Shown here: positions 31,768-49,100 of the stretch, in pieces
How positions within the stretch are numbered: the stretch's first letter is position 1
Layout: each line of letters begins with the position of its first letter
Origin: a virus
Lineage: Duplodnaviria; Caudoviricetes
DNA: 64,000 nt
Reading direction: 5' to 3' (one strand)
Virus record (IMG/VR): IMGVR_UViG_3300028840_000761
Coordinates: 772-64,771 of that record
The notes under the pieces: generated by a model
The model's input: the letters and a program-made list of their open reading frames with translations, nothing else
Database searches by the model: none
Told to the model about the DNA's origin: nothing
Made by a program: the position numbers and the translations under genes

Positions 31768-31775
31768 TGTTCGAG

Positions 31776-32882: not shown

Positions 32883-34004
32883 TTAGTTTGCAATCTGCTT
32901 GAGTTCTTTACCGATGCCCTCGAAGTCAAGCAGTTGCTGGTACACTGGGTCTGTATCAAAGAGGATCATGGACTTGATAACTTCCAGCTCATCCTCCGTG
33001 AACTGATGGACGAGGCCGTGCAGGATATGACCACAGGTACAGTCACACCATGTCTCCCCACACATCAGGCACTGTCTGCTATGGCCGTCCGTCATCTCTT
33101 CGTCGATGAAGTCCCAGAACAGTATTTCAAGCAGGTCGAGGTCGTCCTCCTGCCAGTCACGTTCCGGCTGCCTTGTGCCGTCGCCGTCGTCCTCATCTTC
33201 TTCCATGTAATCAGCAGTGGTGACGTTGTTGAACTTCGAGTATCCGTAGTAATCGTAGTCGTCATAACCCCCGTACTTGTACCCGTTTCCGTAACTGCGA
33301 AATCGGGGCACCACCGGATACAGTTCGGTAAGCGGATCGACGATCATATCGATGACACGATCCACGGTCAGGAGGAGTTCGTCGAAATGCTGGTACTCAC
33401 GGCTGGAGTGTTGTTCATAGTAGCCGATGGACAGGTTGACGCTCGGAATGAAGTACGCATCAGTCAGGTCAGCGATGTCGGAGTAGCTACCCCATCCGGA
33501 CTTGAAGCCGAACGACTCGACGTACTGCTCGACTTTCTTGTCGATGTCGGCGTAGGTCACATACTCGGTGGCACCCTTGCGATCGAGTTCCACCATGAGA
33601 TTGATGTGCTCGATCTGCAACTCATCCGAGGTGATGAACGCCTTGACGCCACGGCCACCGCTCTCCTCGTAGTTGGTGATAAGGATGCTAGGCTTGGCCA
33701 GCTTAGCTTCCTCGCACTCCCTGAGTACCTCGATGATACCGAAGATACCGGCCCGGTCATCCCCGCCGAGCGGATCAGGGTGCTTGTTGGTCAGGACGTT
33801 ACGGTTCACCACGACCTTGCACTTCTTGCGGGTCACGGTATCCATGTGAGCCACGAGCAGGATCGGACTGGCGTTGTCCTGATAGAAATAGTTATCTCCA
33901 TCTGTGATGTAGTCTCCTTTCTTGAAGTAGTTCTTTTGCAGGTACTTGAATATCTGTTCGTTAGGAACCTCCAGCAGTTTGACGAACTCTTTGAGCTTGG
34001 TCAT
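32883..34004 (-). CDS. M20/M28-family zinc metallopeptidase
   Basis: LLVAHMDTV, LGGDDRAG, EESGGRG, ELDRKG, SYSDI and SVNLSIGYYEQH. Confidence 0.8.
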   Translation of the reverse strand: MTKLKEFVKLLEVPNEQIFKYLQKNYFKKGDYITDGDNYFYQDNASPILLVAHMDTVTRKKCKVVVNRNVLTNKHPDPLGGDDRAGIFGIIEVLRECEEAKLAKPSILITNYEESGGRGVKAFITSDELQIEHINLMVELDRKGATEYVTYADIDKKVEQYVESFGFKSGWGSYSDIADLTDAYFIPSVNLSIGYYEQHSSREYQHFDELLLTVDRVIDMIVDPLTELYPVVPRFRSYGNGYKYGGYDDYDYYGYSKFNNVTTADYMEEDEDDGDGTRQPERDWQEDDLDLLEILFWDFIDEEMTDGHSRQCLMCGETWCDCTCGHILHGLVHQFTEDELEVIKSMILFDTDPVYQQLLDFEGIGKELKQIAN

Positions 34005-36061
34005 TATATTGCCTCCTCTTCTGGTTCGGCGCAGTCTTCACAGACTCCGTCCTCGTTAAGATCATCGGTGTCACACAGGACGGCGCACTCATTACACCCA
34101 GAGAAGTTGTCCTCTAGGCACGCTTGGCACACCTCGCGTCCGTCCTCAGCGATGGTCGTTATGGTGTCGTTCTCCTTGTACTCGTGGCAGATGTCACATT
34201 CTGTGACGTGATCACCCTGACAGTCTGAGCAGTAGGTGTGCCCGCTCTCGGTGTAGATGTAGTCATCGGTGTAGTCATAGCATTCTTCGCATCCGACCAA
34301 CCCTTGGTTTTCTATGCAGTGTGGACACCAGCTATCACCGGAGACCGACCGTGCATCGTCGTTCGAGGTGGTCTCGCCACAATGGGCACAGTGGAAGTAG
34401 GACTCATAGAAGCACGCCTCACAGTACGAATCCCAGTCGGTGTAGTACGCGTTATCGGTGCTGACTTCATCTCCGCAACAACCACAGCTGGTGTATGACT
34501 CATAGTAACAGGACTCACAGTGGGTGCGCCCATGCTGGTCACGGTATATATCGTTCTGACCGACATGCCCATCACAACCACAGCAGATGCCGTCGCTATT
34601 GGTGTGATATGAGCAGTCAGGGCAAAGGATAGCGGAGGTGGAGATGCCGGTCTCATCACAGAAGATACAGGCGACCCGCTTGAACGGTGGCGTGGCGGCC
34701 TGTGGGTGCGAGTGCCGTTCGGAATCATGACGTAGATAGTCAGACTCCCCGCCATCGAAGTACACGCCATACGCATACGACTGGCTACACAGCCCAGCCG
34801 ACCGCTTGATCCAGTGGTTGTGGAGTCCCATGGTACGGGCGATCGAACGCTCAATGACCTGACGTCCGAGCTTACGGTGGTGGTCGGTGAATGATCCGTA
34901 GCTCCGGCTGAAGATGAAGTCTAGGCCGGACTGGCCTAGGTAGACAAAGGCACGACCAGTTTTCTTGGTCGGCGTTCCGACATAACAGAGGAACGTGAAG
35001 TCATCCCTGAGATAAGACGCCACCGATGCGAAGTACTCACCACCCGGGCGCAGACAGGAGCTGAAGCCACCATCATGCGAGCAGGTCAGGATGTCACTCG
35101 GGTTGGCTGACAGGTACATGTCAATGAACGGTGACCCGAGGATTTCTCCCAGCTTCGACCAGAAGATACTTGCCCGGTACACACCCTCTTTACTGCGTGA
35201 GCCTGTCTCTTGCAGTACCCACTGGGATATTGCGCTGTCGCCATCACCGACCAAGTTCTTCAGGAAACGAGTCGCTTTGTGCTCGACTCCCTGAGAGTCG
35301 GTGATCAACGCCCGAGGCGTGGTCGTGAGCGTGAAGCCATTCTCATTCTCCAGCTGTTCGATCCAGTGCCTGAGCTGAGGGCCGAGATGATCCCGGCTGT
35401 TCTCGGGCAGGTCGACCTTGACCTTGAGTCGGAGCGTGTCCGGATTCAGACCAAGCAGGTTGGTCACACGGTGTTTGTTGTCAACGAACTCTTCAACGTG
35501 TTCCTCACACAGTTCGCCGACAGGCAGGCCACATTCCATCATTCTCTGACGGAACTCCTCGTAAATAGTCATACGATAGTCCTCCTCTATGGCTGTGAAG
35601 TTAATGTCTGGCTCCTCATCCTCGTCCACAATGGGCGGGGCCGGAGGTTCGGGTGTCTCATAAATCGTGAAGTTGTTCCATGTACCGATCTCACCATTGA
35701 CAAGCTCGCCGAGTGACTGACCGGTAAGGCGGTTGGTCGACTGAACAGCTGTGTTGTAGGTCACGCTCTCAACATTGGCACGTAGCTCTGCCATGTGCTG
35801 ACCGTACAGCTTGCGCCATTCGCCAAGTATGTTGAAGTTGGCTGAGTCAGCCGCCTCATCCGTGATAACAGCGGTCGCTGTATACCCACTGATCGTGTCA
35901 CTGATCTCCAACTGGGTTGTGCACGCCACATCAAACGGCTCGTACCTGCGGAAGCGTACGGTATCGCTACCCCGTGGCCGGAACCCAAACCTCTCGGAGA
36001 AAGGGACATAGTCAGCGGTACTGGCTAGACCGGTACGCCACAAGCGGGATAGAAATGACAT
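34004..36061 (-). CDS. Capsid-paralogue fragment in frame with a multi-zinc-finger protein (internal start likely at 35572)
   Basis: Residues ~25-136 align with the MCP at 62416. GAGGAGG precedes Met at 35572. The C-terminal third carries 14 CxxC motifs. Confidence 0.7.
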   Translation of the reverse strand: MSFLSRLWRTGLASTADYVPFSERFGFRPRGSDTVRFRRYEPFDVACTTQLEISDTISGYTATAVITDEAADSANFNILGEWRKLYGQHMAELRANVESVTYNTAVQSTNRLTGQSLGELVNGEIGTWNNFTIYETPEPPAPPIVDEDEEPDINFTAIEEDYRMTIYEEFRQRMMECGLPVGELCEEHVEEFVDNKHRVTNLLGLNPDTLRLKVKVDLPENSRDHLGPQLRHWIEQLENENGFTLTTTPRALITDSQGVEHKATRFLKNLVGDGDSAISQWVLQETGSRSKEGVYRASIFWSKLGEILGSPFIDMYLSANPSDILTCSHDGGFSSCLRPGGEYFASVASYLRDDFTFLCYVGTPTKKTGRAFVYLGQSGLDFIFSRSYGSFTDHHRKLGRQVIERSIARTMGLHNHWIKRSAGLCSQSYAYGVYFDGGESDYLRHDSERHSHPQAATPPFKRVACIFCDETGISTSAILCPDCSYHTNSDGICCGCDGHVGQNDIYRDQHGRTHCESCYYESYTSCGCCGDEVSTDNAYYTDWDSYCEACFYESYFHCAHCGETTSNDDARSVSGDSWCPHCIENQGLVGCEECYDYTDDYIYTESGHTYCSDCQGDHVTECDICHEYKENDTITTIAEDGREVCQACLEDNFSGCNECAVLCDTDDLNEDGVCEDCAEPEEEAI

Positions 36062-36064
36062 TGA

Positions 36065-36268
36065 TCACCCCGCTTTCTCCCTGTCATGCTTCTCGCACAG
36101 GGCATCACTGACTTCTTTGAGGTGTGCCACACACTCTTCCAACCGGCCACTCATCATACTGATGGTGAAGTACGGGACGTTCAACCCTTCCGGTTCCACG
36201 CAGAATAGTATGCGTGCGGCGTAGGTGGCGAAGTCATGCAACAATTCGTTCTCTTTCTTTTTGTTCAT
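36065..36268 (-). CDS. Hypothetical early protein
   Basis: SD AAAGGAGG immediately after the palindrome at 36289. Confidence 0.7.
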   Translation of the reverse strand: MNKKKENELLHDFATYAARILFCVEPEGLNVPYFTISMMSGRLEECVAHLKEVSDALCEKHDREKAG

Positions 36269-36303
36269 CGTTCCTCCTTTCTGAGGAGCTAGGCTGGGTC
36301 AGC

Positions 36304-36795
36304 CTAGCTCTCGTATTCGGCGTCCGACAGGCAGGAGTCGGCGTCGGAGATGTAGGTACGTGCCCGGTCGATGTACTCCATGATTCTCTGGTGCGTATCG
36401 GAATCGACAGAGTTATCCAGACGCTCAACCAACTGGTTCATCTGCCACTCGGAGATTTCCTGTGCCATATACATCAGGGCACTCAGGTTGGACAGACGGA
36501 AGGTGATCTGCTCGTGCTTGGTCACGATGTTCTCCTCTTCCTCGGTCTCGGTCGAGATCACCGGGACTTTCGGTTCCTGACAACATGTGGTACGGGGCAG
36601 TGCTTCGAGGTCGATGTCCTCGGACACACCACCGGCGATGACGTGGCCACAGTCCGGGCACACTACGCTGTGGATGGTGTTGATCACAGGTTCGTTGACC
36701 TGCGTCTGCTTGGTCAGCGCGATAGTCGGCTGGCCGGACGCATCATCAAGGGACAGGGAAAAAGTGGTGTTGCCGTTAGTGAGTGTACGTTCCAT
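36304..36795 (-). CDS. Hypothetical early protein (CPDC motif)
   Basis: SD TAAGGAGG; the TAG stop is supplied by the palindrome. Confidence 0.7.
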   Translation of the reverse strand: MERTLTNGNTTFSLSLDDASGQPTIALTKQTQVNEPVINTIHSVVCPDCGHVIAGGVSEDIDLEALPRTTCCQEPKVPVISTETEEEENIVTKHEQITFRLSNLSALMYMAQEISEWQMNQLVERLDNSVDSDTHQRIMEYIDRARTYISDADSCLSDAEYES

Positions 36796-36807
36796 TGGTA
36801 GACCTCC

Positions 36808-37245
36808 TTAGTCTAGGGTGATGCCGAGATCGGCACAGAGACGGTCGAGCTTCTTCTCGATCGCCAACAGTTTGGCAGAGATGATCCCTTCCATGTGGTG
36901 CATGAACGACAGCAGTTCATCACTGGACAGGGGCGGTTCGGGTACGGGTTGCGACTCCACACCGATCGGCGCAGGGTCAGGGCCAAGGATGAACAGCTTC
37001 GCTCCGTACTTACCCTTCTGTATGGAGACATGCACTTCATCCCTCTCGATCAGGACATTCAAGCGGTTCTGCACAGTGTGCGCGGCCAGCTTGTAGCCCT
37101 GCCTGTCGTGGAACTTCTTGGCCAAGTCCTTGACGGCCAGCCCTTTTGGATGAGCCTTGCCGAGCAAGTCTTTGATGGCCTCAAGCTCCATCTCGATTGC
37201 CTTTTGGACAGTCGGACTGTTGTACTGGTTGTCTCCCCTTGGCAT
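36808..37245 (-). CDS. Putative winged-helix DNA-binding protein
   Basis: GLAVKDLAKK...AHTVQNRLNVLIERDEV...GAKLF pattern; SD AAAGGAGG. Confidence 0.5.
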   Translation of the reverse strand: MPRGDNQYNSPTVQKAIEMELEAIKDLLGKAHPKGLAVKDLAKKFHDRQGYKLAAHTVQNRLNVLIERDEVHVSIQKGKYGAKLFILGPDPAPIGVESQPVPEPPLSSDELLSFMHHMEGIISAKLLAIEKKLDRLCADLGITLD

Positions 37246-37259
37246 GGGAGTCCTCCTTT

Positions 37260-37478
37260 CTACGGGCAACACCCGCAACAGGGTGCATCTTCGCACCGGT
37301 CAACGACACCGATCTGGTTGCCTTCGCCATCGAAGACACCGTTCGGATTCAGCAGGCTGTTGAGCTGAGCATGGCACATGTGATAGCCACACACATCACA
37401 GCCCGCACCATACTCATCGTACTCCAGAAATTCTGGAGTGATACGGTTCCCACAGCTGGGACATTCCATTGTTCTCAT
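37260..37478 (-). CDS. Small Cys-rich protein
   Basis: CPSCG, CDVCG and a C-terminal CEDAPCCGCC. Confidence 0.65.
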   Translation of the reverse strand: MRTMECPSCGNRITPEFLEYDEYGAGCDVCGYHMCHAQLNSLLNPNGVFDGEGNQIGVVDRCEDAPCCGCCP

Positions 37479-37480
37479 AG

Positions 37481-37783
37481 TTACTCTCCTTCCAGTCGAG
37501 CGATTACTTGGTTGAGGGAATTGAACACCATGTAGCTGACCTCACCTCCTCCAGCGAGGTAGGCTTCCAGTCTCTCATTGAACTGTTGTCCAGTCGTGGG
37601 CAACGCATACCGGATACTGTCATGCAAGTCACGCAGAGTTGCCTCTCCCATGTTGGCGATCGACCCAAGGATCAACAGGTCATTGACGTCACGCAGACGT
37701 ATCGTCATTTCCATCGGGAACTGATCGTCTACCGACTTCTCTTCCTCTTCTTCTTCTTCGATCCAGTCGTCTAGATCGGGCAT
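37481..37783 (-). CDS. Hypothetical early protein with acidic N-terminus
   Basis: SD AAAGGAGGTGA right after the palindrome at 37803; starts MPDLDDWIEEEEEEE. Confidence 0.7.
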   Translation of the reverse strand: MPDLDDWIEEEEEEEKSVDDQFPMEMTIRLRDVNDLLILGSIANMGEATLRDLHDSIRYALPTTGQQFNERLEAYLAGGGEVSYMVFNSLNQVIARLEGE

Positions 37784-37817
37784 GATTTCACCTCCTTTCG
37801 AGCTAGGCTGAGCCAGC

Positions 37818-38330
37818 CTAGATATTCCGGTACGAGTCAGTCTGGAGACGCCAGTAGTCCCAGCCCCCACGCGCACCAATGTGGTCAATCGAGCCGACCG
37901 AGGTCAGCCAGTTGCCACAGCAGTCACCGTCCGCCTCGCAGATAGCACACGAGCAGGACGTTCTGTTGAAGTAGTCATACAGGGCGTTCTGGATGTCGGT
38001 CGCCCGTATGTCAGGTGGTGTGTGTTCGGTCGAGCACACCCGCACGATGATCTCACGGGTCACTCGGTCATCACCGGCCTCGTCTGCGTAGTAGTTGATG
38101 GTCTTGTTCATGATCTCCTGCATATCCACGAGGTAGCGGTCATCATCGAGGTGCTTGTAGGCAGACTTGTACTTATGCGTCAGCCTCTGGTACAGGTGTG
38201 TCGAGCGATGGCCGACCGGCTCCATCTCGACACCATCACACCCTTCACACGGGTTGTACGCCCACTTGTCCTCAACGATCTCAAGACGCCCGCAACACGG
38301 GCACTCAACAGCACTGGTCGGGTCAGCCAT
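37818..38330 (-). CDS. Hypothetical Cys-rich early protein
   Basis: SD GGAGGTGA; the TAG stop is supplied by the palindrome. Confidence 0.7.
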   Translation of the reverse strand: MADPTSAVECPCCGRLEIVEDKWAYNPCEGCDGVEMEPVGHRSTHLYQRLTHKYKSAYKHLDDDRYLVDMQEIMNKTINYYADEAGDDRVTREIIVRVCSTEHTPPDIRATDIQNALYDYFNRTSCSCAICEADGDCCGNWLTSVGSIDHIGARGGWDYWRLQTDSYRNI

Positions 38331-38700
38331 AAATCACCTCCGAGAAACATGCGAGTTGTAAGAAAATGTCAGCGTCCTCTGCGTCATAAGACTCATCAAA
38401 CAATGAGTGCAGTCGCAGTGGGAACTGGATGGACATGGCATCGAGCGCATACTGCAAGCATTGTGCATCGATAATCACTTCACCATCCCCCTCGATCATG
38501 GTGATCTTCATGCGACCGAACATCGGGATCGTGCAGTAGCGAGGCCACTCGTGCGCCCACTTGGGTGCGCTTTCAGGCAACGGATCGATGTAGCTAATGT
38601 CCTCGATCCACGAGGACGAATAACCCTCGAACGCGCCGCACAGGATGTACGCCATCTGCTTCTCGGTCAGTTTGACCGGCACATCAACAGAAAATTCCAT
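38323..38700 (-). CDS. Hypothetical early protein
   Basis: AFEGYSSSWI...DAEDADIFLQLACFSEVIYG, a recurrent phage C-terminal motif. Confidence 0.7.
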   Translation of the reverse strand: MEFSVDVPVKLTEKQMAYILCGAFEGYSSSWIEDISYIDPLPESAPKWAHEWPRYCTIPMFGRMKITMIEGDGEVIIDAQCLQYALDAMSIQFPLRLHSLFDESYDAEDADIFLQLACFSEVIYG

Positions 38701-39125
38701 TAGGTGTCACCTCCTTCAAAGTAGTGGTCGAGAGACTTCAGAGCCTCTTTCGCCTGCTCGACAGTGACCGCTCCGGTTTCCAGTTCGTACGACATTTCCT
38801 CGAAGCGATCGGCTTCCATTCGGAGATCGTGCGCCGCTTCCTCCAGCTCCTCGGCCAACACGTTGAGCCTGTCGTACCGCTCCTCGAAGTCAGGCATGTG
38901 ATCGATGTAGATCATCTTGTCGAGGTCGGATTTCTCATACCCAACCTCCGAGTCATACTCGATCTCCCGGCGTTCGAGGTCGAACCGCTTGGCTGTCCAG
39001 AGTGGCGGATCATCCGACTCTGTCCAATACGTGTGTGGCCCCACACTTGTGACGACCATCGTGCCGAGGCGCGGGCTGAGAAAGATCGTCCCGACCCGAA
39101 CCTGTTCTGCTGTGAGTAGTGCCAT
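38700..39125 (-). CDS. Hypothetical early protein
   Basis: SD GGAGGTGA after the palindrome at 39147; acidic coiled-coil C-terminus. Confidence 0.7.
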   Translation of the reverse strand: MALLTAEQVRVGTIFLSPRLGTMVVTSVGPHTYWTESDDPPLWTAKRFDLERREIEYDSEVGYEKSDLDKMIYIDHMPDFEERYDRLNVLAEELEEAAHDLRMEADRFEEMSYELETGAVTVEQAKEALKSLDHYFEGGDT

Positions 39126-39130
39126 TGGTT

Positions 39131-39547
39131 TCACCTCCCTTTCTTTCTAGGCTGAGCCAGCCTAGATACATAATCGGCGATCTCTTTCGCCGTCTCCGGT
39201 GTATTGCCGACCAACAGGCCGTTCTTCGGCGTGACGAGCGCGAGTGCGACCGCATTCATGTACGTGGTCATGTCCTCACTCAAGGAGAAGCACTCCTTAC
39301 CGAAGTAATAGGCGGCAGCGTCCTGATCGACCTCATTCCAGTCATCGATGGTGTCCCAGCGGTGACCACAGCACGGACAGCACCCGCACGAGTCATACGC
39401 GGCGTACATCCCGCTGTCCTCGCAGAAGTCAATGAACGGGGCCGCGGCGATCATGGCCTGCTCGGGTGAATCGGCCTCGATGAACACAAAGACCGCGGGC
39501 GGGCGGAAGTGCCCGCCACTGTTGTTTTGCCTTACCAGAAAGATCAT
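39131..39547 (-). CDS. Conserved phage protein (QNNSGG motif)
   Basis: RQNNSGGHF...FIEADS...CPCCGHRW; SD GGAGGTGA. Confidence 0.7.
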   Translation of the reverse strand: MIFLVRQNNSGGHFRPPAVFVFIEADSPEQAMIAAAPFIDFCEDSGMYAAYDSCGCCPCCGHRWDTIDDWNEVDQDAAAYYFGKECFSLSEDMTTYMNAVALALVTPKNGLLVGNTPETAKEIADYVSRLAQPRKKGR

Positions 39548-39921
39548 GATTTCACCTCCATCAGTTTGAGTTGTTCGGCCATCTTCATGCACTGCTGGAC
39601 ACAGTACTCGGTCGAGCGCACGACACCTCGTATGTGCGAGGCAAACTGCGGGTTGTACCCTTTCAGGCGCGGATCGGGCGCGTCGTTGTAGTGAGCGCAG
39701 TCGAAGCCGATGGTGAGCGTGCCGTCGTCATTCAGCTGGGTGTAGGTCACACCCCCATGACAGTCGATCGTGTTCTCGATCTCATAGTCACCCTCATGGT
39801 AAAGGTCGATGGCCGGATGGCCGACAGGCACAGTGACATAGCCACAACGGAAGCCCATCCCGTTGTTGACCACCTCGCATTCAAAGCCGAGGTACGGAAA
39901 CTTCTTGAGTGAGTCTCGCAT
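39544..39921 (-). CDS. Conserved phage protein
   Basis: FRCGYV...HP...CHGGVTY...IGFDCAH recurrent motif. Confidence 0.75.
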   Translation of the reverse strand: MRDSLKKFPYLGFECEVVNNGMGFRCGYVTVPVGHPAIDLYHEGDYEIENTIDCHGGVTYTQLNDDGTLTIGFDCAHYNDAPDPRLKGYNPQFASHIRGVVRSTEYCVQQCMKMAEQLKLMEVKS

Positions 39922-40115
39922 CAGTTATCCTCCTTCCACTCGCTGATGTCCCTGATCGATGCGCGGAGCTTGTCGAACTTGACCTGCTTCTGTACCCGAA
40001 CAGAGCAGTTCTCCCCACAGCTCGGGCAATACCCGAGGTTAGCGTTGAAATACGATGCTTCGTCCTCGCACCCACACACGGTGCACTTCATGTTGTCAGC
40101 CTGCGGTTGTGCCAT
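39921..40115 (-). CDS. Small zinc-ribbon protein
   Basis: CTVCG...YCPSCG; SD AAGGAGG. Confidence 0.6.
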   Translation of the reverse strand: MAQPQADNMKCTVCGCEDEASYFNANLGYCPSCGENCSVRVQKQVKFDKLRASIRDISEWKEDN

Positions 40116-40359
40116 TGGTTTGATCCTCCTTCTCTCTAAGTTCAAGTTCTGCCTCAATGAAGTACACCGCCTGTCGGTAGAACTCCAGCACATGAGGCTC
40201 CTCGTTGCCACAGGCACACAGGTAATCCCGAGACAGAATCTTCACGAGATTACGCAGTGTCGTGGTCTTGTACGTCGTGACACCAAACATGAAGCCAATG
40301 ATGTCACGCTTGAGGACAATGGTGTCCTCGTGGCGCAGTATGTCGTCATACTCAGCCAT
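40096..40359 (-). CDS. Hypothetical early protein
   Basis: SD AAAGGGG after the palindrome at 40376. Confidence 0.6.
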   Translation of the reverse strand: MAEYDDILRHEDTIVLKRDIIGFMFGVTTYKTTTLRNLVKILSRDYLCACGNEEPHVLEFYRQAVYFIEAELELREKEDQTNGTTAG

Positions 40360-40385
40360 ACACATCCCCTTTCTGCTAGGCTGGC

Positions 40386-40628
40386 TCAGCCTAGCGGTTT
40401 ATTGAACCGGAACAGCGCATCATAGAGAGCTTTGAAGTCAGGAGAATCCACCCTCTTGAAAAGCTCGCGCTCCGCGCCTCCGGCTACGCCGTACATCTCG
40501 AAGAGGAACTCGTACAGCTCCTCGCTCCGCTGGACAATCTCATTCATCACGGCCTGCGGGTACTCACCCTCACCAACCGCGAGCCTGAGCTGATCCAGCT
40601 CCATCTTGGCTCTGAAATAACCGCTCAT
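40386..40628 (-). CDS. Hypothetical early protein
   Basis: SD GAGGAG; the TGA stop lies inside the palindrome. Confidence 0.6.
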   Translation of the reverse strand: MSGYFRAKMELDQLRLAVGEGEYPQAVMNEIVQRSEELYEFLFEMYGVAGGAERELFKRVDSPDFKALYDALFRFNKPLG

Positions 40629-40876
40629 GAATCTAGGTACTCCTCTCTGGTCAGGAATATGAACCCTTCTTCGATGTCCCAAAAGGTCAGCTCAGGGTTA
40701 TGCTCGCGGATGAACTGCACCGCGTCCGTCTTGGTCGGAAACCACTCGACAAACCCATCAGGCGCGAGGTGATACTCCAGCCCGTTGAGCGAGATGCCAT
40801 TGATCGAGCGAGCGATGCACACATGGTCGAGCGGTGTGCCCTCGTCCTCGACCTCCTCAATCCAGTCATCGACCAT
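40625..40876 (-). CDS. Hypothetical early protein
   Basis: MVDDWIEE...INGISLNGLEY motif. Confidence 0.65.
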   Translation of the reverse strand: MVDDWIEEVEDEGTPLDHVCIARSINGISLNGLEYHLAPDGFVEWFPTKTDAVQFIREHNPELTFWDIEEGFIFLTREEYLDS

Positions 40877-40878
40877 AT

Positions 40879-41076
40879 TTACTTCTCCCCTCTCAGCTTG
40901 GCGAGAGCCTCGCGGTTCTCACGGGTGACAGCGTTGAGCACGCCCTCAGTGACCTGCGGACGCACGATCTCCAGTCTAGGCCGAACCAGCCTAGTCTCGA
41001 TCCCCAGACGTTCGAGACGGAGATTGATGTGCTCCATCTCTTCGGTCGACATACCGACCACAACAACCTCTACCAT
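40879..41076 (-). CDS. Hypothetical early protein
   Basis: SD AGGAGGT; contains an internal palindrome copy at 40976. Confidence 0.6.
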   Translation of the reverse strand: MVEVVVVGMSTEEMEHINLRLERLGIETRLVRPRLEIVRPQVTEGVLNAVTRENREALAKLRGEK

Positions 41077-41079
41077 TTG

Positions 41080-41310
41080 TTATACCTCCTGTTCGGATTG
41101 ATTGAGGAACGAGCAAATGCAGTTGAAGCAGAAGCATTCAATACACACCTTGCCCTTGCCCTCGTTGCGTGAACGGCCTTTGTAAATCGCGTATGCGATC
41201 TTGCGAGCAGTCCACGGTTTCGTGCTGTCGCTTGCAAATGCTATGAGTGCCGGTGTATCAAGCACACGCAATTTGTCCACGACCATCTGCGTTTCGCGTG
41301 TGTGGCGCAC
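41080..41310 (-). CDS. Hypothetical early protein
   Basis: SD AAGGAGGTGA before GTG 41310; C-terminal CIECFCFNCIC. Confidence 0.6.
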   Translation of the reverse strand: MRHTRETQMVVDKLRVLDTPALIAFASDSTKPWTARKIAYAIYKGRSRNEGKGKVCIECFCFNCICSFLNQSEQEV

Positions 41311-41354
41311 GTTTTCACCTCCTTCCCGTGTCGGGCTACCGCCCGACAGCATTC

Positions 41355-41820
41355 TGCTAGTACGTTTAGTACGTTGGCTAGTACGTTTGACCTTAAAAAA
41401 TGCACCTCCCAAATATAACATGTGTTATTAACATGTCGGACTTAAGTGCCTGAAATAGCTAAGCTGGCCCAGCCTAGCATTAGTACGTTTAGTACGTTTA
41501 GTACGTGATTTCAAGAGAACGAGCCTATCTTTTTACTCTTTACCCTTATATGTTATATGACATGTGTATTATCATATAAAAACCATAGGGCGAGACGGCA
41601 ACGGTTTATTGCTCAGTTTGAAAAACGTACTATTCATACTATTTATACTAAAAGTATTATTATTATTATTATAGACCCCTAGTGGTTTCGCATAGTTAGC
41701 CCATTGGTGTGTATAACACATGTTATAGTTTCGGATTATTTTAATACATACTAAACGTACTAAAAGCACAGGATGTCGTACTAAACGCTCTATGGTATGT
41801 TATAAAAATATAACATATCG
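41355..41820. repeat. AT-rich iteron array, putative replication origin
   Basis: TAGTACGTT at 41358, 41367, 41379, 41481, 41490 and 41499 (8/9). Inverted AACGTACTA at 41624 and 41754. A 15-bp inverted repeat at 41414-28/41713-27 and a (TTA)n tract at ~41657-70. Confidence 0.75.
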
Positions 41821-41896
41821 AACGTAAGTTCCTGATATTCCTACTATAACATCTGCTATACAGCTAGGCTGGCTCAGCCTAGCAAATTTTAAGCAC

Positions 41897-41929
41897 GACA
41901 AAAGCCCCTAGCTCGAAAGCTAGGGGCTT
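41897..41929 (-). terminator. Intrinsic terminator after the first early gene
   Basis: The - strand reads AAGCCCCTAGCT-TTCG-AGCTAGGGGCTT-TTGT (UUCG loop, short U run). Confidence 0.8.
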
Positions 41930-41933
41930 AGTC

Positions 41934-42791
41934 CTGAATAGCAGGGGCGCATGTTTAATTAACCGTTGGATGCCATTTTCATGAACTGCTGAAACATCTT
42001 AACCATGGCCGGATCGATTTCCGGCTCCTCGGTGGTGTGTTCGACAACCCGCGATACCCGCGTGGTCACCGGAACGTCATCGCCGTGGACTTCGACATGC
42101 AGGTTGGTGGTCGAGAACAGGTCACGGATGATGTCGAGGACATCATCGACCTCAAAAGCCTTGCCTTCGTGACGCGCCTTAACCAAAGACGGGCGGATAC
42201 GCTCGAAATTGATCTGCAAAGCCTTCTGATTGTCCAGACGCTCAAGGATAACGGACAGGTCAGTGTTATTCTTGATCGTGTCATCCTTCTTGAGCTGTGC
42301 CAGAGTCAAGCCATGCGATTTTTTCGCACGCTCAAGCAAAGCATCAGAGAAGTTGTGGCCTTTATCCTTCTTGGCCATCGGGTTGCCATCGCGATCCACT
42401 GCGATAGCGCGGATCGGACGGCCTTCGTTGGTCTTGCCAACGATCTCGATCTCGAAGCGAGCGGAAATCTTGCTTGCCCACAGCTTGTATGCGGAAGCAT
42501 CCTTGCTGTTGTGATCGGAAATCGCCTTGGACTGACCAACGTCCTTCGGCCAATCAGAGTCCTTGCCACGGAACGACTTGGCTTGCAGATCGAGGAACGT
42601 ATAGTTCTTGCCTACCATCCAGTTCGCGCACTCTTTGCACGCATCATCGATGGTTACGTCCAGATCGGTGGACTTCTTGTCTAGTGCCAACCATGTGGAA
42701 CGAACAGAATTAAAAGTAATAGCCATTAGTCTATCTCCTTATGAGCTAAGCTGACTCAGCCTAGCTAGTCTGTTGCGCCCCTGCTATTCAG
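41934..42791. repeat. Perfect 18-bp inverted repeat pair enclosing the 255-aa gene
   Basis: CTGAATAGCAGGGGCGCA (41934-41951) and TGCGCCCCTGCTATTCAG (42774-42791). Confidence 0.95.
41959..42726 (-). CDS. First early protein, unknown function (255 aa)
   Basis: Monocistronic: two promoters, SD TAAGGAG and its own terminator. Confidence 0.8.
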   Translation of the reverse strand: MAITFNSVRSTWLALDKKSTDLDVTIDDACKECANWMVGKNYTFLDLQAKSFRGKDSDWPKDVGQSKAISDHNSKDASAYKLWASKISARFEIEIVGKTNEGRPIRAIAVDRDGNPMAKKDKGHNFSDALLERAKKSHGLTLAQLKKDDTIKNNTDLSVILERLDNQKALQINFERIRPSLVKARHEGKAFEVDDVLDIIRDLFSTTNLHVEVHGDDVPVTTRVSRVVEHTTEEPEIDPAMVKMFQQFMKMASNG

Positions 42792-42811
42792 TTATCAATG
42801 ATCGTATGAAA

Positions 42812-42895
42812 AGACTAACACATATTGCATCAGATGTCAAGCGTTATGTCTCATCATTTGATAACCATTATAGCATAACGTATGTAATAAGTCAA
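42812..42895 (-). promoter_or_regulatory. Tandem strong early sigma70 promoters
   Basis: TTGACT(42895-90)-17-TATAAT(42872-67) and TTGACA(42840-35)-17-TAGTCT(42817-12), both with a TGn extended -10. Confidence 0.85.
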
Positions 42896-43052
42896 ACTGA
42901 CGCTAGGCTGAGCCAGCCTAGATAACCCCCCAATGGGGGGTATTTTGCGCACCGTGGGGGTTTGTGGGGGAGGTACGCCCATACGTCACACGAAAATCCT
43001 TGAAAAGGTGTATGGCACCGCACGGCCCAACGTTCCTGACTGATTTTCCAGC

Positions 43053-43081
43053 TTGACATCAGCTGTTACAGCATCTAAGAT
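43053..43081 (+). promoter_or_regulatory. Sigma70-like promoter of the late arm
   Basis: TTGACA(43053-58)-17 nt-TAAGAT(43076-81). The predicted TSS coincides with ATG 43088. Confidence 0.65.
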
Positions 43082-43087
43082 TCGCGT

Positions 43088-43606
43088 ATGGAACTGTTCG
43101 CCGACGATATAGCCTTCGAGGCTTCCGACGCCCTAGCGGGGCTTGATGATTACCTGAACGAGGATTTCGATGAGGTTGCGGAGGTTGCGCATTCTGCGCT
43201 CGGCGTCTCGCCTGTTCGCGCTCCCGGGTGTCCGATGTGGCCGCAGGCGCTGGTTGTCGACATCGCCCTTGGGATCGACCCGCGCTCCGATATAGAGGAA
43301 CGATATAACCTGAAGCCGGAGCAGTTGGACTTCCTGTTGGAGAACCGGGCATTCCGGATTGATCTGGCCCGTATTCGCAAGGAGATTGCGGAGAACGGGC
43401 TTTCGTTTAAGCGCAAGGCGGCGACGCAGGCGGAGATGTACCTGCTTGATATGGACAGGATCATGGCCGATCCGGATACGCCGCCGGGAATAAAGAAGGA
43501 CATCTTCGTACAGATGGCGCGGCTCGGCGAGCTGGAGCCAAAAACTGCGAAGGATGGCGAGATCACCGCTGGTGGTCTGGCGTTTAATATCCAGATCAAC
43601 ATGTAA
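43088..43606 (+). CDS. Putative terminase small subunit
   Basis: 172 aa, helical, first gene of the late arm beside the probable genome end, with a C-terminal beta-strand FNIQINM typical of TerS. Confidence 0.5.
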   Translation: MELFADDIAFEASDALAGLDDYLNEDFDEVAEVAHSALGVSPVRAPGCPMWPQALVVDIALGIDPRSDIEERYNLKPEQLDFLLENRAFRIDLARIRKEIAENGLSFKRKAATQAEMYLLDMDRIMADPDTPPGIKKDIFVQMARLGELEPKTAKDGEITAGGLAFNIQINM

Positions 43607-43666
43607 CCGGGCACCGCCCGTTAAAACGAGTGGCCAATCACGGCCTACCCTGAAAAGGAGAGCATC

Positions 43667-44089
43667 ATGAGAGAAAACCTGAGAACCATGCTGGAGAAAC
43701 TTCCACCCGTCCTGCGCAAGCTGCGCACCTCCCTCGCTTCCCTGTATTGGACTGTGACCACGTCCGCCACGCCTGCCTCCGGCAGCTGCGCTGTGCAGTT
43801 CGTGTTCAAGGACGAGAACGGGATGCCCATGACAGCCCCTGTCTCCGGGCTGCTCTACCTCAGCGAATCTGCTGACGGCACAACTCAAGACCTTGCCGAT
43901 ACCAGCCTTGCCGTCCTGACCAACGGCGCACTGACCAACGTCGGTGGAGCTGGGCCGAGCCTGTTCACCACCACGGCGACAGGCTTGCTGGGATTGACAA
44001 TCACCGCAGCTGCGGACGACTACTATGTTGTCTTCGTGCAGCCCAACGGTGAGCTGTTGATCTCCGACGTCTGCACTGTCAACGCGTAA
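43667..44089 (+). CDS. Hypothetical structural protein (beta-sandwich-like)
   Basis: SD AAGGAG; T/A/G-rich; followed by a UUCG hairpin at 44098-44119. Confidence 0.55.
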   Translation: MRENLRTMLEKLPPVLRKLRTSLASLYWTVTTSATPASGSCAVQFVFKDENGMPMTAPVSGLLYLSESADGTTQDLADTSLAVLTNGALTNVGGAGPSLFTTTATGLLGLTITAAADDYYVVFVQPNGELLISDVCTVNA

Positions 44090-44146
44090 ATAGGCTAGGG
44101 GGTGGGTTCGCCCACCCCCGCAGCTCAGAGATGTAAGGAACCACAG

Positions 44147-44698
44147 ATGTCCCAGCCATGCGAGCAAGCCGAGATTATTGTAGCCCTTGAAAAAAGTCAG
44201 CATGAACAGAGCAAGAAGATCGATGCGATCCTCGAAACCCTGAGAACGCAGACCGAGACCTTCAATAGCTCGATCAAGGAGCTGACGCAGGTGCTGTTAC
44301 AGAATGCACGGCATGGCGAGGTCTTGCTCCAGTTAAAAAAGGAGAACGACCTGATCTTCAATTCCTTGCGGGATGTGAAGACGGACGTGCAGGCAATCAA
44401 GGAACGGAACGCGAAGTGCGATGGCGCGGGGATATTTGAGAACTTCCCGAAAATCTGGGACTGGTATACCGCGCACAGGAAGTCTGACGTCGACATCGAC
44501 AAGATGTGGAAGTGGTACCTTGGCGAGCTGGGCTGGAGACGGTTCCTGCCTGCGGTACTGGCCGTCATCTCCACGGTGATGGCGATCTATATCTCATTAC
44601 ACCAGATCAACACTCATGATCACGGTATTGCGTTGAGTAAAGACCCACGCGGTGCCATCAAACAGGACGTCGGGGTCGACGTCCGGAATACTCACTGA
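44147..44698 (+). CDS. Coiled-coil protein with a C-terminal transmembrane helix
   Basis: SD TAAGGA; FLPAVLAVISTVMAIYISL hydrophobic segment. Confidence 0.6.
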   Translation: MSQPCEQAEIIVALEKSQHEQSKKIDAILETLRTQTETFNSSIKELTQVLLQNARHGEVLLQLKKENDLIFNSLRDVKTDVQAIKERNAKCDGAGIFENFPKIWDWYTAHRKSDVDIDKMWKWYLGELGWRRFLPAVLAVISTVMAIYISLHQINTHDHGIALSKDPRGAIKQDVGVDVRNTH

Positions 44699-44709
44699 AG
44701 GAGAGAACC

Positions 44710-45036
44710 ATGGCCAGAGTATACGGTAGAGCTTCTGCCAGCCTGACAGCGCAGAACACCTTCACGGATCACATCCACCCGGCGGACAAGCCGAACAAAG
44801 GTGGCCTGCTCAACCTGTCCATCACCGGACTGGCTGACTCGACGGTCACCTTGCAGCGCACGTTTGATGGCGGAGCCAACTGGGCGGACGTGGTGCAGTA
44901 TACGGTCTCCGACGCTGTCAACAACAGCGTACAGAAAGTGATCGAGGCCGGGAACGAAGGCGCAGAAGGTTACCGGGTCGGTATCAAAACCGGTGACTAC
45001 GGCACTGATACGGTTGTCTGCCGCCTGAGCCACTAG
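44710..45036 (+). CDS. Small virion structural protein
   Basis: TVTLQRTFDGGANWADV...YRVGIKTGDY recurrent motif; SD AAGGAG. Confidence 0.65.
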   Translation: MARVYGRASASLTAQNTFTDHIHPADKPNKGGLLNLSITGLADSTVTLQRTFDGGANWADVVQYTVSDAVNNSVQKVIEAGNEGAEGYRVGIKTGDYGTDTVVCRLSH

Positions 45037-45045
45037 GAGGTCGTT

Positions 45046-45753
45046 ATGATACGATCTCCGATAAGAGACGGCCTGCCACGCGACATAGTCCGGGGTTTGT
45101 TCGGGGCTGGCGGAGCTGCGCCTGCGCCGCCGCCTGATCCATCACTATACTTCTCCGATGCCTTCAACAATACAACCGGTGCGCATATAACTGTCGCAGA
45201 GGGAACATGGTCTCCTACTGTCGGCCCAGCGACTGGCGGGTATACCGACAAGGTAGATTTAGGTGCTGGTACCGATGCCATCTTCCGGGTGAATTATGTC
45301 CTCGATCGGTTAGAGCTGAACTCCCCCAGCGGTACAGACTCCGCGTACATACAATACCTATTCGGTGAAACGCTGAACCTATTAGGATTGGATTGGAAGT
45401 GGCAGGCCAGTTATTACCCCACATCTGGATATGGTAATGGCGGCAATAGGTGCCACATGAACTGGACTATCGGGATTAATGGGACTTTATCTACAACTCA
45501 AGTAGAGTGCGTACATCCCGGCGGCAACACGGTTGTAACTTGCCCAGCAACAACATCCGGAGTATTATCCAACAGACAGGTAACTTGGGATGGCGCTAAT
45601 ATTCGGTACTACGTCAGCGATACCTTGGTCTTTACGTTCCCACATACTACGGCCATTAATCTTAGCTATATTTATTTCAGTGGGACAACATTCGGTACGG
45701 TAAGACCGGCGTGGGACGAGATGACCTTGTGGATAAATGGGTTGAGACCATAG
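45046..45753 (+). CDS. Putative receptor-binding protein (lectin/LamG-like head)
   Basis: Short anchor N-terminus, Pro linker, then an AT-richer beta-rich domain. Confidence 0.5.
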   Translation: MIRSPIRDGLPRDIVRGLFGAGGAAPAPPPDPSLYFSDAFNNTTGAHITVAEGTWSPTVGPATGGYTDKVDLGAGTDAIFRVNYVLDRLELNSPSGTDSAYIQYLFGETLNLLGLDWKWQASYYPTSGYGNGGNRCHMNWTIGINGTLSTTQVECVHPGGNTVVTCPATTSGVLSNRQVTWDGANIRYYVSDTLVFTFPHTTAINLSYIYFSGTTFGTVRPAWDEMTLWINGLRP

Positions 45754-45762
45754 GAGTAAGCC

Positions 45763-46137
45763 ATGTCACAAGCAGGCAGATGGCCAATTACGATACGCAA
45801 AGGCGAGGACTTCAGTCTGGAGTTCTGGGTCGAGATCGACGATGTCGTCCTCGATCTGACCGGGGCGTCTGTCTACGGGCAGATCAGAAAGCTGCGCAAC
45901 CGGGAGACCGACTTGATATTGGACTTCACGGTGACGGTTGATGGTGTGGCTGTGACCAATCCGGCCCCGACCGATAACGTCATCAAACTCACTTTGACCG
46001 ATGTCCAGACCGCGGCGATCGATGATGATGAGACCAGCGGGTACTACGACGTTCTAGTCGTCGGCTCCGGCGGTGAGGACATCTACTACCTAGAAGGGCC
46101 GGTTACGATCCTTGACTCGGTAACGGTGAAGCCATGA
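45763..46137 (+). CDS. Tail fibre adaptor protein (BppU-N-like)
   Basis: ITIRKGEDF...LDLTGAS..GQIR...IKLTLT..QT...YYDV...YYLEGPV. Confidence 0.7.
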   Translation: MSQAGRWPITIRKGEDFSLEFWVEIDDVVLDLTGASVYGQIRKLRNRETDLILDFTVTVDGVAVTNPAPTDNVIKLTLTDVQTAAIDDDETSGYYDVLVVGSGGEDIYYLEGPVTILDSVTVKP

Positions 46138-49100
46138 CCCAGAAGATAGTCGTCAAGATTAAAGAACGCGGGCCGCAGGGGATCGAGGGGCCACCGGGTG
46201 CAGCGGGCGGGAGCTTTCTCGACCTGTCTGATACTCCTGTATCGTATGCCGGTGCGGCTGGCTACGGCGTTCAGGTCACCGCAGGTGAGGACGGGCTGGA
46301 GTTTACTGCCCACGCCCCCGGCTCGGGGGATATGACGGCGGCAGTCTACGATCCAACTACTATCGCAGCTGATGTCTTCGACATGGACAACATGGTGCAG
46401 GGGTTGACGAACTTCTTCCTCAATGCAACCGAGTATGGCAACCTACACGCCCCCAATAGTGACGACCAAGACCTGAGTGGTCTGGTGCCGTACACCGGCG
46501 CGACCGGAGACGTTAGTCTAGGCGTACACAGCATCGCAGCGGCCAACCTGTCCGGCAACAACACCGGTGATCAGGTTGCTAGTGATTTCAACCACGACGA
46601 TCTGGCAAGCATCAGCGGTGGGGGGCCAGCCGACTACCAACACCTGACGACCGTGCAGCTGGGCAACATCCACGCCCCGGGTAGCGACGATCAGGTGGCC
46701 AGCGACTTTAACCACGACGACCTGTCGGCTCTCACTGGCTCAGGGCCGGAGTACGGCCATGTTAATGCTGTCGAGCTGGCAGCGATCACTCATGCTAACC
46801 GGTCGAACCTCGACTCGATTGATCAGGATTTGGCAAAGGCCGATAACGTCGTATTCAATAGCGTCAATATTGGCAGCGAATTGACCGGGGTTATTATTAC
46901 TGGTATCGATGGTGAGCTTAGCTTTACCCCAACCGACCCGACAGGCGTTACTACCATATATTTCTTTGATAATTCTGACGTAGGCCGGGAAGCTGTAGGG
47001 GAGTTCAGTTGGAGTGGGGATGACCTTTACTTCCTTGCTTATGCGAGCGGCGGTAGGACGCCAGACCTCATCCTCTGGCCGCAAGGTGACAACGTACAGA
47101 TCAACGCCAATCTCATTCCTGTCGGTCTTGCAAAGGATATCGGTGTGTCGGGCGGGACGACGTGGGATAACCTGTACCTCGACGAATCAGTCAATGCGGC
47201 CCAGATGAATTTTGACCTGACCGCAGGCATCACCGTGACCCAAGGCCAACTGGCATGGAACGCGGACGAGGAGACCCTCGACCTTGGCCAGAACGGTGCC
47301 GTCCTCCAGATCGGACAGGAAATTCACTACCATGTCCGTAATAACAGCGGGGCACAGATCGACGATGGCACACCGGTCATGGCGACCGGGACGATCGGAG
47401 CCTCCGGGCGGATCACGATCGCACCGATGGACGCGACCGACCATGCCAACGAGCGGTACTTCCTCGGCATCACTACCGAGGATATTGCCAACGATACGGA
47501 CGGCAAGGTCTCCGAGTTTGGTAAGGTACGCGGCCTCGATACGACCGGTGCGTTGTCATTCGGCGGGCTGGAAACGTGGAATGATGGAGATATCCTGTAC
47601 CTTGATCCGGCGAATGTTGGCTACCTGACCAACGTCGAGCCGACCGGCCTCGATATAAATATGCCGGTGGCTTTTGTTATCCTTGCCCATACTAACGGAA
47701 CTATATTTGTCCGGGCGACCCACACAGACCTGAACCACTATGTCACCCGGGATCAGCAGCAGCTGACACTCGACCCGACCGGCTGGGTGGACAACACGGC
47801 GATTCAAGTTGACTACGACGAGATCACCCGGACGATCACACTGACCGGTGATCTGCGCTACTACTGGCGCGGGGTGCTCAAGGAGCTGACTTCCCCGTGG
47901 ACATCCAGTGCGCACAGCGCCACGACCGACCAGACATACTTCCTCTACACTACGGATGGCGAGACCTTCAGCTGGAGCACCACAGTCTGGGACTTCGATA
48001 TGATGATGGTCGCCTTCGCCTATTACGGTGCGACCCATCAGTACGGCGTCCGTGAAGTTCATGGCCTGATGCCGTGGCAGACCCACCGCGAGTTCCATGC
48101 CCGTCAAGGAACATACAAGGTGTCTGGTGGTACGCTGTCCGGCTACACGCTGTCCTCGACGACTGCCGCCGACCGGCGACCGACTGTCTCGGCGACGGTG
48201 TTGAATGACGAAGACATCTACACGACACTGCCCGAGTGGGATGTGGACATTCTCGGCGCGACTCAGTTTTACCTGAGCGGGGCCGGGGGTGCCTCAAACT
48301 TTGCCACTGGGGCTACAGACATTGTGCCGCTCTCCGGCAACCAGCCATACTGGAATGAGTTTACTGGCGGGACGTGGCAACAGACCCTGCTCTCAAACAA
48401 CCAATACATGGCCGTCTGGCTGGTGGGTGTGCCAGTTACTGAGGACTCCATCTCGCAGGGCTACCGGTACTGGTGGGTGCAGGGGCAGTCAGCTGATAGC
48501 ACCTTGTCCGCTATCCAAGCCCGTTCGCCACTTGACTTGAATCTCGGGGCCGTGCCGACAATCACGCCTGAGTTCACTTTCCTTTCCAAAGTCATCCTGC
48601 GCTATACCGCAGGTAACTGGCAGCTGATTCAAGTCGATGTACTCAGTGGCTCGCGGGCACAGGTAACCTCCGGGGCATCTGGTAACTACCTGTCGATTGT
48701 GTCTACCGATACGACCTTGACAGGTACAGGCACCGGTGGTGACCCACTAAGTGTGGCGAATGATGGCCATACCCATGATACCCAGTATATCCCGGGGCCG
48801 GGTACGGTCACGGATAACGCCGTTGTCAGGTTTGATGGCGTGACTGGACTGATAATCCAAGAGTCGTTGGTGACGATCACCGATGCGGGTGCGATCTCTG
48901 CCACCAATCTTGTCCTTTCCGGCAACTGGACGCACAGCAACGGCTATATCCATGCCAACGGTGATGTGGCCGGGAGTAGTTTTTACGCAACTAACAAGGC
49001 GCATTTCCGAGGTGGCATCGATAACGATACTGGGGCGTTTATCCAGTGCTATCGTGCCTTTCAGTGCGAGAGCGTCTCAGACTATGTGACCCTCAAGGTG

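Follow-up and report, generated by a model that had tools for sequence, protein, structure and literature searches.

A perfect 18-nt inverted repeat encloses a phage early gene and may pair the 5′ and 3′ untranslated regions of its mRNA

Long-range RNase III stems flank 16S and 23S rRNA in their precursors. In phage T7, the RNase III sites R0.3 and R1.1 lie between early genes, as local hairpins in polycistronic RNA. The type I toxin mRNAs hok and aapA1 encode small toxic peptides, fold back into a translationally inert form and come with an antisense RNA. At the DNA level, invertible segments (Hin/Gin, Fim, the 'invertons') are flanked by an inverted repeat, with the promoter outside.

Bacteria offer established cases of pairing between the 5′UTR and 3′UTR of one mRNA that affects RNase III or RNase Y; the excerpted text of PMC7821165 gives icaR, hbs and RNAIII. 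For icaR of S. aureus (PMC3868564), the same excerpt describes a UTR duplex that is cleaved by RNase III, and a contact between UCCCC in the 3′UTR, acting as an anti-Shine-Dalgarno sequence, and the ribosome-binding site, which is thereby masked (PMC7821165). For hbs of B. subtilis (PMC5737220), it describes a 14-nt 5′/3′ contact that shields the leader from RNase Y, and it reports that the 3′UTR elements of hbs and icaR are not conserved in close relatives (PMC7821165). As to the nuclease itself, substrates of E. coli RNase III typically span about two helical turns, shorter ones also work and helices can stack, according to excerpts of PMC1540722, in which R1.1 serves as a model substrate.

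We examined a locus of this general kind in a phage. The window, a stretch of 64,000 nt, comprises bases 772-64771 of a viral record of 64,771 bases, for which CheckV estimates a completeness of 100%. Kinship to named phages is only distant, the nearest being Pseudomonas phage KPP25 and its relatives, with 34% identity in the DNA polymerase. The replication block (DNA polymerase, helicase and primase) lies on the - strand from about 17 to 42.7 kb, and the + strand carries the terminase and large virion genes. The locus treated here sits in the divergent control region at ~42.7-43.1 kb, and the 255-aa gene that it contains is therefore the first of the leftward block. No repeat enclosing a gene was seen on inspection of the early region of KPP25, and KPP25 gp29 (263 aa) was considered as a counterpart of the 255-aa protein and rejected as not homologous. 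An Rfam scan and a tRNA scan each gave 0 matches, as did a comparison of the 3012-aa window protein with PDB sequences; a search with PF00940 (T7-type RNA polymerase) gave no match, its control likewise matching nowhere.

A sequence-only reading of this DNA had reported that the gene is enclosed by a perfect 18-nt inverted repeat, and this we confirm: the two arms (Table 1) are 100% complementary, are separated by 822 nt and bound a unit of 858 bp. The 5′ arm starts ~15 nt past the predicted start of P2 and ~70 nt past that of P1. The repeat exceeds chance. No complementary run beyond 10 nt arose when the two UTRs were shuffled 2000 times, as compared with the 18 nt observed, and the 18-mer has these two copies only in the whole 64,771-base genome even with up to two mismatches allowed. 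Once the CTAGGCTG palindrome family is set aside, no other perfect pair among the 19 inverted pairs of at least 14 nt within 4 kb found over the whole window is as long as the arms; two shorter perfect ones (15 and 14 nt) are inside genes.

Some variation and recurrence of arm sequence was seen elsewhere. Contig X5, which does not span the 3′ arm, has a 5′ arm with 42774 deleted and a G>A change at 42775, besides 45 further differences. A 19-mer, GATCATTGATAACTGAATA, with 7 nt from the 5′ arm, also occurs in an unrelated viral contig (L049), where the 25 longest of that contig's 54 inverted pairs include no 3′ partner for it; part of the arm could have another role, or the recurrence could be due to chance. 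The 19-mer GATCATTGATAAYTGAATA matched L049 and a second contig, L050, neither of which shares a protein with the window (tblastx, E<=1e-3).

The order of elements read earlier along the - strand, namely promoters, arm, palindrome copy, Shine-Dalgarno sequence (SD), gene, arm and UUCG terminator, holds on the sequence and is set out in Table 1. The accompanying description of two strong promoters is slightly generous. The spacer of P1 contains the motif TATWACATNNGTTAT. In P2 the -35 is perfect and the -10 is extended by TG, but the -10 hexamer itself is poor (3/6), and our promoter scan did not list P2. The helix that the arms could form would lie upstream of the SD, its end at 42774 being 33 nt away. 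The only RNA-library contig (X4), of 242 nt, covers 42724-42965; because it extends upstream of both P1 and P2 it is no evidence for the mRNA, and it may represent DNA or some other transcript.

Table 1. Elements of the locus in the order of leftward transcription, in window coordinates
Feature	Position	Strand	Basis and remarks
Palindrome copy upstream of P1	42903-42921	- order	Palindrome search
P1, sigma70-like, TTGACT-17-TATAAT, 11/12, with TG	42867..42895	-	Promoter scan
P2, sigma70-like, TTGACA (42840-42835), 17-nt spacer, TGT-TAGTCT (42820-42812)	42812..42840	-	Read off sequence
GATCATTGATAA block, abutting the 5′ arm upstream	42792..42803	-	Alignments; identical in L048
5′ arm, mRNA sense CTGAATAGCAGGGGCGCA	42774..42791	-	Inverted-repeat scan; L048 counterpart 304-320
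Spacer of 9 nt, 5′ arm to palindrome copy	42773-42765	-	Sequence
Palindrome copy between 5′ arm and SD	42746..42764	-	8-bp stem, 3-nt loop, one G.U on - strand
Shine-Dalgarno AAGGAG, 8 nt ahead of ATG	42735..42740	-	Read off sequence; outside long-range stem
255-aa ORF, ATG at 42726	41959..42726	-	ORF list
Spacer of 7 nt, stop to 3′ arm	41958-41952	-	Sequence
3′ arm, mRNA sense TGCGCCCCTGCTATTCAG	41934..41951	-	Inverted-repeat scan; L048 counterpart 1150-1166
Spacer of 4 nt, 3′ arm to terminator	41933-41930	-	Sequence
Intrinsic terminator, 12-bp stem with UUCG loop (41902-41929), then U-rich tail UUUUGU	41895..41929	-	Repeat scan
Further palindrome copy beyond terminator	41882-41864	- order	Palindrome search

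The enclosed gene encodes a protein that matched no Pfam family at E<=1 and no PHROG family. Its relatives among 1.84 billion representative proteins are two, P0001 (74% identity, from a 1049-nt contig) and P0002 (43%, from a 1207-nt contig), and in a survey of ~15 billion proteins the family consists of four single-member clusters found on 1, 1, 1 and 3 contigs. A structure prediction had been suggested earlier, and AlphaFold2 run on a four-sequence alignment gave an N-terminal domain (mean pLDDT 86.3 for residues 1-125, 70.6 for the whole), consisting of five helices and one short beta hairpin, with no recognisable family or fold. Foldseek against PDB found no significant fold for the 255-aa model (best E 0.43), the BFVD search reached a best E of 0.14, and in a wide fold search with VIA the best Z scores, 6.2 (full model) and 6.9 (N-domain), were all to generic helical structures. 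ESM Atlas returned unnamed viral clusters only, with structural TM <=0.30 (query-normalised). Nothing suggests that the protein is a toxin.

Covariation of the two arms in related phages had been proposed as a check. A megablast of 41300-43200 and a tblastn of the 255-aa protein, each against 50,697 phage records, gave no match. Three protein queries (255, 172 and 685 aa) and alignment A1, run on viral contigs, gave no relatives, a search of genome contigs with alignment A2 gave none, and DNA patterns of P1 and of the iteron block had 0 matches in viral contigs. The 45 viral loci retrieved with the 1230-aa protein were tried and rejected, none being syntenic; in the best of them, L003, the overlap with the window is limited to fragments of four proteins, and blastn with window positions 38000-46200 found nothing. 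A metagenome scan gave one locus, L048, a contig of 1513 bases, which is the sole relative compared as DNA, so that the covariation described below is between two sequences.

L048 encodes a protein with 57-58% identity to the 255-aa protein, and its noncoding flanks align with those of the window. P1 is identical at 28/29 bases, the -35 and TG of P2 are conserved, and the rightward promoter is also kept. A terminator with a 13-bp stem stands in the same place, with different stem letters. The palindrome at the equivalent place (329-347) has its own version, CTAAACGC-N3-GCGTTTAG, against CTAGGCTG-N3-CAGCCTAG in the window. L048 also has a perfect inverted repeat, of 17 nt, at sites homologous to the two arms, its 3′ arm lying 8 nt past the stop codon and 3 nt ahead of the terminator.

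Comparing the 18 arm pairs of the window with L048 (transcript alignment A5), we find 13 invariant and four changed on both sides and still pairing; single-sided changes are absent, and the innermost, terminal pair of the helix is lost. The four double changes are C-G to U-A, G-C to A-U, A-U to G-C and G-C to A-U, in each case a transition plus a transition, a path that can run through G.U intermediates. Transitions make up ~43-46% of the background differences between the two sequences (12/27, 7/16, 132/307 and 69/150), and simple arithmetic puts the chance of four out of four at ~0.04. With the true partners 97% of cells pair, a share that falls to 36-42% once the partner is shifted by 1-3 columns; a shuffle control of the covariation gave 24/500, a measure that cannot discriminate with two rows only. 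The arms differ from L048 at 4/18 positions (5′ arm) and 5/18 positions (3′ arm), with 27/64 and 16/46 in the remainder of the UTRs and 150/254 at third codon positions. What is conserved, on this two-genome alignment, is complementarity and not a frozen arm sequence. Compensatory change, the sign of pairing maintained by selection that one would look for in an icaR or hbs type of interaction, is seen here between two sequences.

Minimum-energy and centroid folds of the predicted transcripts, for the window and for L048, contain the stem together with the palindrome hairpin and the terminator. The duplex energies are -36.2 kcal/mol (window) and -30.0 kcal/mol (L048), and shuffled L048 UTRs gave complementary runs of at most 12 nt. 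The earlier suggestion that the UTRs pair into a stem looping out the coding sequence is thus, as a predicted pairing, the reading best supported by the compensatory changes and the folds. In our judgement an RNA-level helix between 5′UTR and 3′UTR is probably the feature for which the arms have been selected. Transcript ends are those predicted, and we infer both the pairing in vivo and any involvement of a nuclease.

Because there is no G.U pair in either helix (window or L048), the arm sequences by themselves cannot separate RNA pairing from a pair of identical DNA sites. It is possible, if unlikely, that the arms are inverted DNA sites for a sequence-specific protein. In one version a host recombinase would invert the 858-bp segment and uncouple the gene from P1/P2; in the other a regulator would loop or roadblock the gene. 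Promoter and terminator do lie outside the repeat, which is the layout of an invertible switch, and one protein reading two sites would also account for the two copies being perfectly identical within each genome. Concerted change of two DNA sites is also conceivable, because the multi-copy palindrome family has changed in concert in this lineage, presumably with a trans-acting factor.

For inversion the sequence-only reading had found no recombinase evident in the window, and this extends to the whole genome for two families: PF00239 (serine) and PF00589 (tyrosine recombinase) had 0 matches at E<=1, with controls positive in 13/14 and 14/14 genomes. The genome is 100% complete by the CheckV estimate; a host enzyme is conceivable. 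Only the window's orientation was seen, in the 51.9-kb X2 contig, in 100% of the words sampled from the independent runs X1 and X2, and in L048; these are contigs and not raw reads, and contigs drop rare variants, so that rare inversions would be invisible in them. Contigs X2, X3, X4 and X5, from four of the seven runs listed, have no strand-change joints, X3, X4 and X5 missing the 3′ arm. The palindrome inside the segment has changed along with the copies outside it. Taken with the single orientation and the two recombinase families, this leaves the earlier invertase alternative without support.

For DNA sites in general, an RNA-level constraint is favoured on several further grounds. In both genomes the two arms fall just within the predicted transcription unit, flanked by predicted promoters and a predicted terminator. 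The 3′ arm has little room there, with 7 or 8 nt separating it from the stop codon and 4 or 3 nt from the terminator, a tight fit for which there is no DNA-level rationale. Matching at every arm position, as found in both genomes, is needed for pairing but usually not for a protein site. No internal dyad is present in the 18-mer as read off the sequence, and four changes spread over the site would require the protein to co-evolve. That all four compensated changes are transitions likewise favours RNA. Reciprocal exchange at a crossover swaps arm differences and does not copy them, and for gene conversion a tract of 18 bp is short.

We think it very improbable that the 858-bp unit is, or was, a mobile cassette like an insertion sequence, in which the 18-bp arms would be the terminal inverted repeats around one ORF. 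Its size, its terminal repeats and an ORF that fills the element do resemble a small insertion sequence. However, with no Pfam family at E<=1 the protein belongs to no transposase family, and its model is of helices and a short hairpin. There is no target-site duplication, the flanks being GATAA/GACTA in the window and GATAA/GGCAA in L048, nor are there copies of the arms beyond the two, and the protein family is confined to the four small clusters noted above. The unit also occupies the same position, with homologous flanks, in two phages whose proteins have diverged to 57-58% identity. Its inner palindrome matches each phage's own palindrome family, and the interior therefore belongs to the phage's own regulatory system.

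That the helix forms in a + strand (antisense) RNA and not in the mRNA we hold to be highly unlikely. In its favour, an inverted repeat pairs alike on either strand, arms free of G.U do not tell the strand, the + strand has a hairpin resembling a terminator, with a T run, at 42926-42949, and the RNA-library contig ends at 42965. Against it, there is no good + strand promoter left of 41934 (two 9/12 matches only, near 41633-41669), and L048 does not preserve the T run. All the conserved signals of the gene in L048, from promoters and SD to ORF and terminator, read on the - strand, and in the three palindrome copies with a single mismatch that mismatch can be a G.U pair on the - strand alone.

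Returning to the mRNA helix, we picture its working as follows. Host RNA polymerase would start at P1 or P2 and produce a leftward transcript of the 255-aa gene, with the 5′ arm in the leader and the 3′ arm transcribed after the stop codon, just before the terminator hairpin. The arms would then form a helix of 18 bp (17 bp in L048) that joins the 5′UTR to the 3′UTR, with the palindrome hairpin, the ribosome-binding site and the entire ORF in the loop between them. Such an end-clamp could control the processing and lifetime of the mRNA. It may act as a barrier to 5′-end-dependent attack; alternatively it may be a substrate of nearly minimal size for RNase III, and the two ends would then stay paired after cleavage, much as in an rRNA precursor. 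We favour a protective or maturation clamp, which we put forward tentatively, over a trigger of decay or shut-off, which seems rather unlikely, and other roles for the helix seem less likely again.

The helix starts ~14 nt downstream of the last sense codon, and that distance corresponds roughly to the mRNA entry edge of a terminating ribosome. Since the SD is uncovered and the helix begins at this leading edge, helix and translation can coexist. It is conceivable, though improbable, that ribosomes are recycled on a pseudo-circular 'closed-loop' mRNA, boosting the first phage protein. The helix would hold the stop codon and the leader no more than about one helix length apart, and a ribosome that finishes the ORF would be passed on to the ribosome-binding site, 48 nt past the other arm; circularisation would then be by RNA-RNA contact, as against the protein bridges of eukaryotes.

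Pairing of 5′UTR with 3′UTR and gene-flanking RNase III stems are already known kinds of structure. The perfect helix predicted here, which is backed by covariation and encloses an entire early mRNA of a phage, adds a variant to them. In the literature that we searched, with incomplete coverage of older phage work and of subscription journals, no example of such a helix in phage mRNA was found. In bacterial mRNAs few cases of UTR-UTR pairing are known, and as described in the excerpts of PMC7821165 they are mostly unconserved among close relatives; the present locus has a clean, long and perfect candidate helix round an early gene, with compensatory mutation across a deep divergence. Because its architecture (promoter, arm, RBS, ORF, arm, terminator) is simple and the helix is conserved, it offers a compact natural module for questions of end-to-end pairing, suited to work on mRNA stability, RNase III maturation and ribosome recycling in bacteria, and possibly of use as a part for controlling mRNA lifetime.

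Compared with the described systems, the locus resembles the segments of Hin/Gin, Fim and the 'invertons' in being flanked by a repeat with the promoter outside, and differs from them in that no phage recombinase was found, one orientation was seen and the arms are without a dyad. With hok and aapA1 it would share the pairing of 5′ and 3′ mRNA ends. The earlier analogy to those mRNAs is a weak one: the product has 255 aa, the SD stands clear of the helix, no antisense RNA was seen and no antisense promoter of note appeared in the scan, and we do not class the locus as a type I toxin mRNA.

There are also possible likenesses to RNase III systems. As in the lytic phage T7, a first early gene would be transcribed by host polymerase from strong promoters, with putative RNA duplexes at gene boundaries, but here one helix would arise from the two ends of a monocistronic RNA, unlike the local intercistronic hairpins of T7. 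As in the rRNA precursors, flanking sequences would pair into one helix enclosing an RNA, and cleavage would release it with paired ends. The RNA enclosed here is an mRNA, and the helix, of 17-18 bp and without bulges, is slightly under the two turns typical for the E. coli enzyme. Because shorter and stacked helices also work (excerpts of PMC1540722), it is plausible that such a helix beside the terminator hairpin is an RNase III substrate.

In icaR and hbs complementary UTR segments of one monocistronic mRNA pair across the whole coding region, which is the layout predicted here. In contrast to icaR, the phage helix would leave the SD free (it ends at 42774, with the SD at 42740-42735) and lacks an anti-SD contact; with the ribosome-binding site left free it is unlike both hok and icaR. 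The gene is a phage early gene, and the support is from covariation where icaR and hbs have experiment. The candidate phage helix is longer than the 14-nt contact of hbs and the short contact of icaR, is perfect over 17-18 bp, and is kept across 57-58% protein identity, in contrast to the hbs and icaR elements as the excerpts of PMC7821165 describe them.

A palindrome family particular to this phage, CTAGGCTG-N3-CAGCCTAG, with an 8-bp stem and a 3-nt loop, spans 28467-42921. At up to three mismatches there are 13 matches where 0.28 were expected, all of them in 28-43 kb. Six copies end 16-26 nt upstream of a start codon, immediately before the Shine-Dalgarno sequence (SD). In the three copies with a single mismatch (40976, 41459 and 42746) the mismatch is always G.T when read on the - strand, and A.C when read on the + strand. 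This pattern hints that a hairpin forms in RNA of the - strand or in single-stranded DNA.

In L048, a 1513-base metagenome contig from a relative, another palindrome, CTAAACGC-N3-GCGTTTAG, is found at all three homologous positions. Judged from these two sequences, the family changes in concert between the window and L048, and such concerted change implies a sequence-specific factor acting in trans. The palindromes could be processing sites, stabilisers or operators. A search for a T7-type RNA polymerase gave no match in the phage, and the control of the same search was uninformative. An N4-type virion RNA polymerase is not recognisable in the 3012-aa ORF at 7869-16907, which has only two PHROG matches, both of unknown function, and no match among PDB sequences. 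Elsewhere in the window, the DNA polymerase gene contains a perfect 15-nt inverted repeat (29966-29980 and 30135-30149, with 154 nt between the arms).

Features of the control region, palindrome copies and TATWACATNNGTTAT sites, with coordinates
Feature	Sequence	Coordinates	Remark
Rightward promoter	TTGACA-17-TAAGAT	43053-43081	Promoter scan
C-rich block and hairpin	CCCCCACAAACCCCCACGG; CCCCCC-N3-GGGGGG	window 42940-42990; L048 ~121-165	Upstream of P1
Perfect palindrome copies	CTAGGCTG-N3-CAGCCTAG	at 32008, 36289, 37803, 39147, 40376, 41864, 42903	Window
L048 palindromes	CTAAACGC-N3-GCGTTTAG	171-189, 329-347, 1232-1250	Homologous to window palindrome positions
TATWACATNNGTTAT sites	TATWACATNNGTTAT	42875-42889, 41414-41428, 41712-41727, 41845-41859	Window

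The divergent control region holds further elements. P2, the nearer of the two predicted - strand promoters of the 255-aa gene, shares GCTTGACATC with the rightward promoter in inverted orientation (42828-42842 and 43051-43065), and both promoters are kept in L048. Also kept there are the C-rich block and the CCCCCC-N3-GGGGGG hairpin. On the + strand of the window this hairpin resembles a terminator, but the T run is not preserved in L048. The motif TATWACATNNGTTAT stands at four sites (5 matches against 0.05 expected); one occupies the spacer of P1, the farther promoter, and the other three fall within the non-coding stretch that follows the 255-aa gene. The P1 spacer is nearly invariant in L048. 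This arrangement suggests that TATWACATNNGTTAT serves as an operator at which a factor from the phage or the host would switch P1 off.

A 242-nt contig from X4, a salt marsh metatranscriptome, represents a 97%-identical relative and covers window positions 42724-42965, extending from the start codon of the 255-aa gene to a point 70 nt beyond the P1 -35 element on its upstream side. DNA carry-over, transcription from upstream or on the antisense strand, or an accident of assembly may account for it.

Part of the leader recurs in L049, a viral contig of 4023 bases with no protein in common with the window (tblastx, E<=1e-3). Positions 3190-3208 are an exact copy of GATCATTGATAACTGAATA, which comprises the conserved leader block and 7 nt of the 5' arm of the inverted repeat, and this copy lies ~50 nt downstream of a sigma70-like promoter, within a divergent control region. 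L049 has its own palindrome, TGTCTAGAATCTAGACA, upstream of early-gene SDs; no 3' partner of the arm was found among the 25 longest of its 54 inverted pairs. By a rough estimate of collection size, one exact 19-mer match by chance is possible, and the match in a second viral contig, L050, looks like a chance one.

Directly after the terminator of the 255-aa gene comes a non-coding region of ~500 nt (41350-41860), much of it kept in L048. It contains eight perfect repeats of TAGTACGTT, in both orientations and all inside 41358-41762, and also TATAACATGTGTTATA palindromes. Possible roles for the region are those of an origin or of a regulatory array. Phage KPP25 has an analogous gap full of repeats downstream of its early genes, in that case 24-nt repeats (6394-6832 of locus L051).
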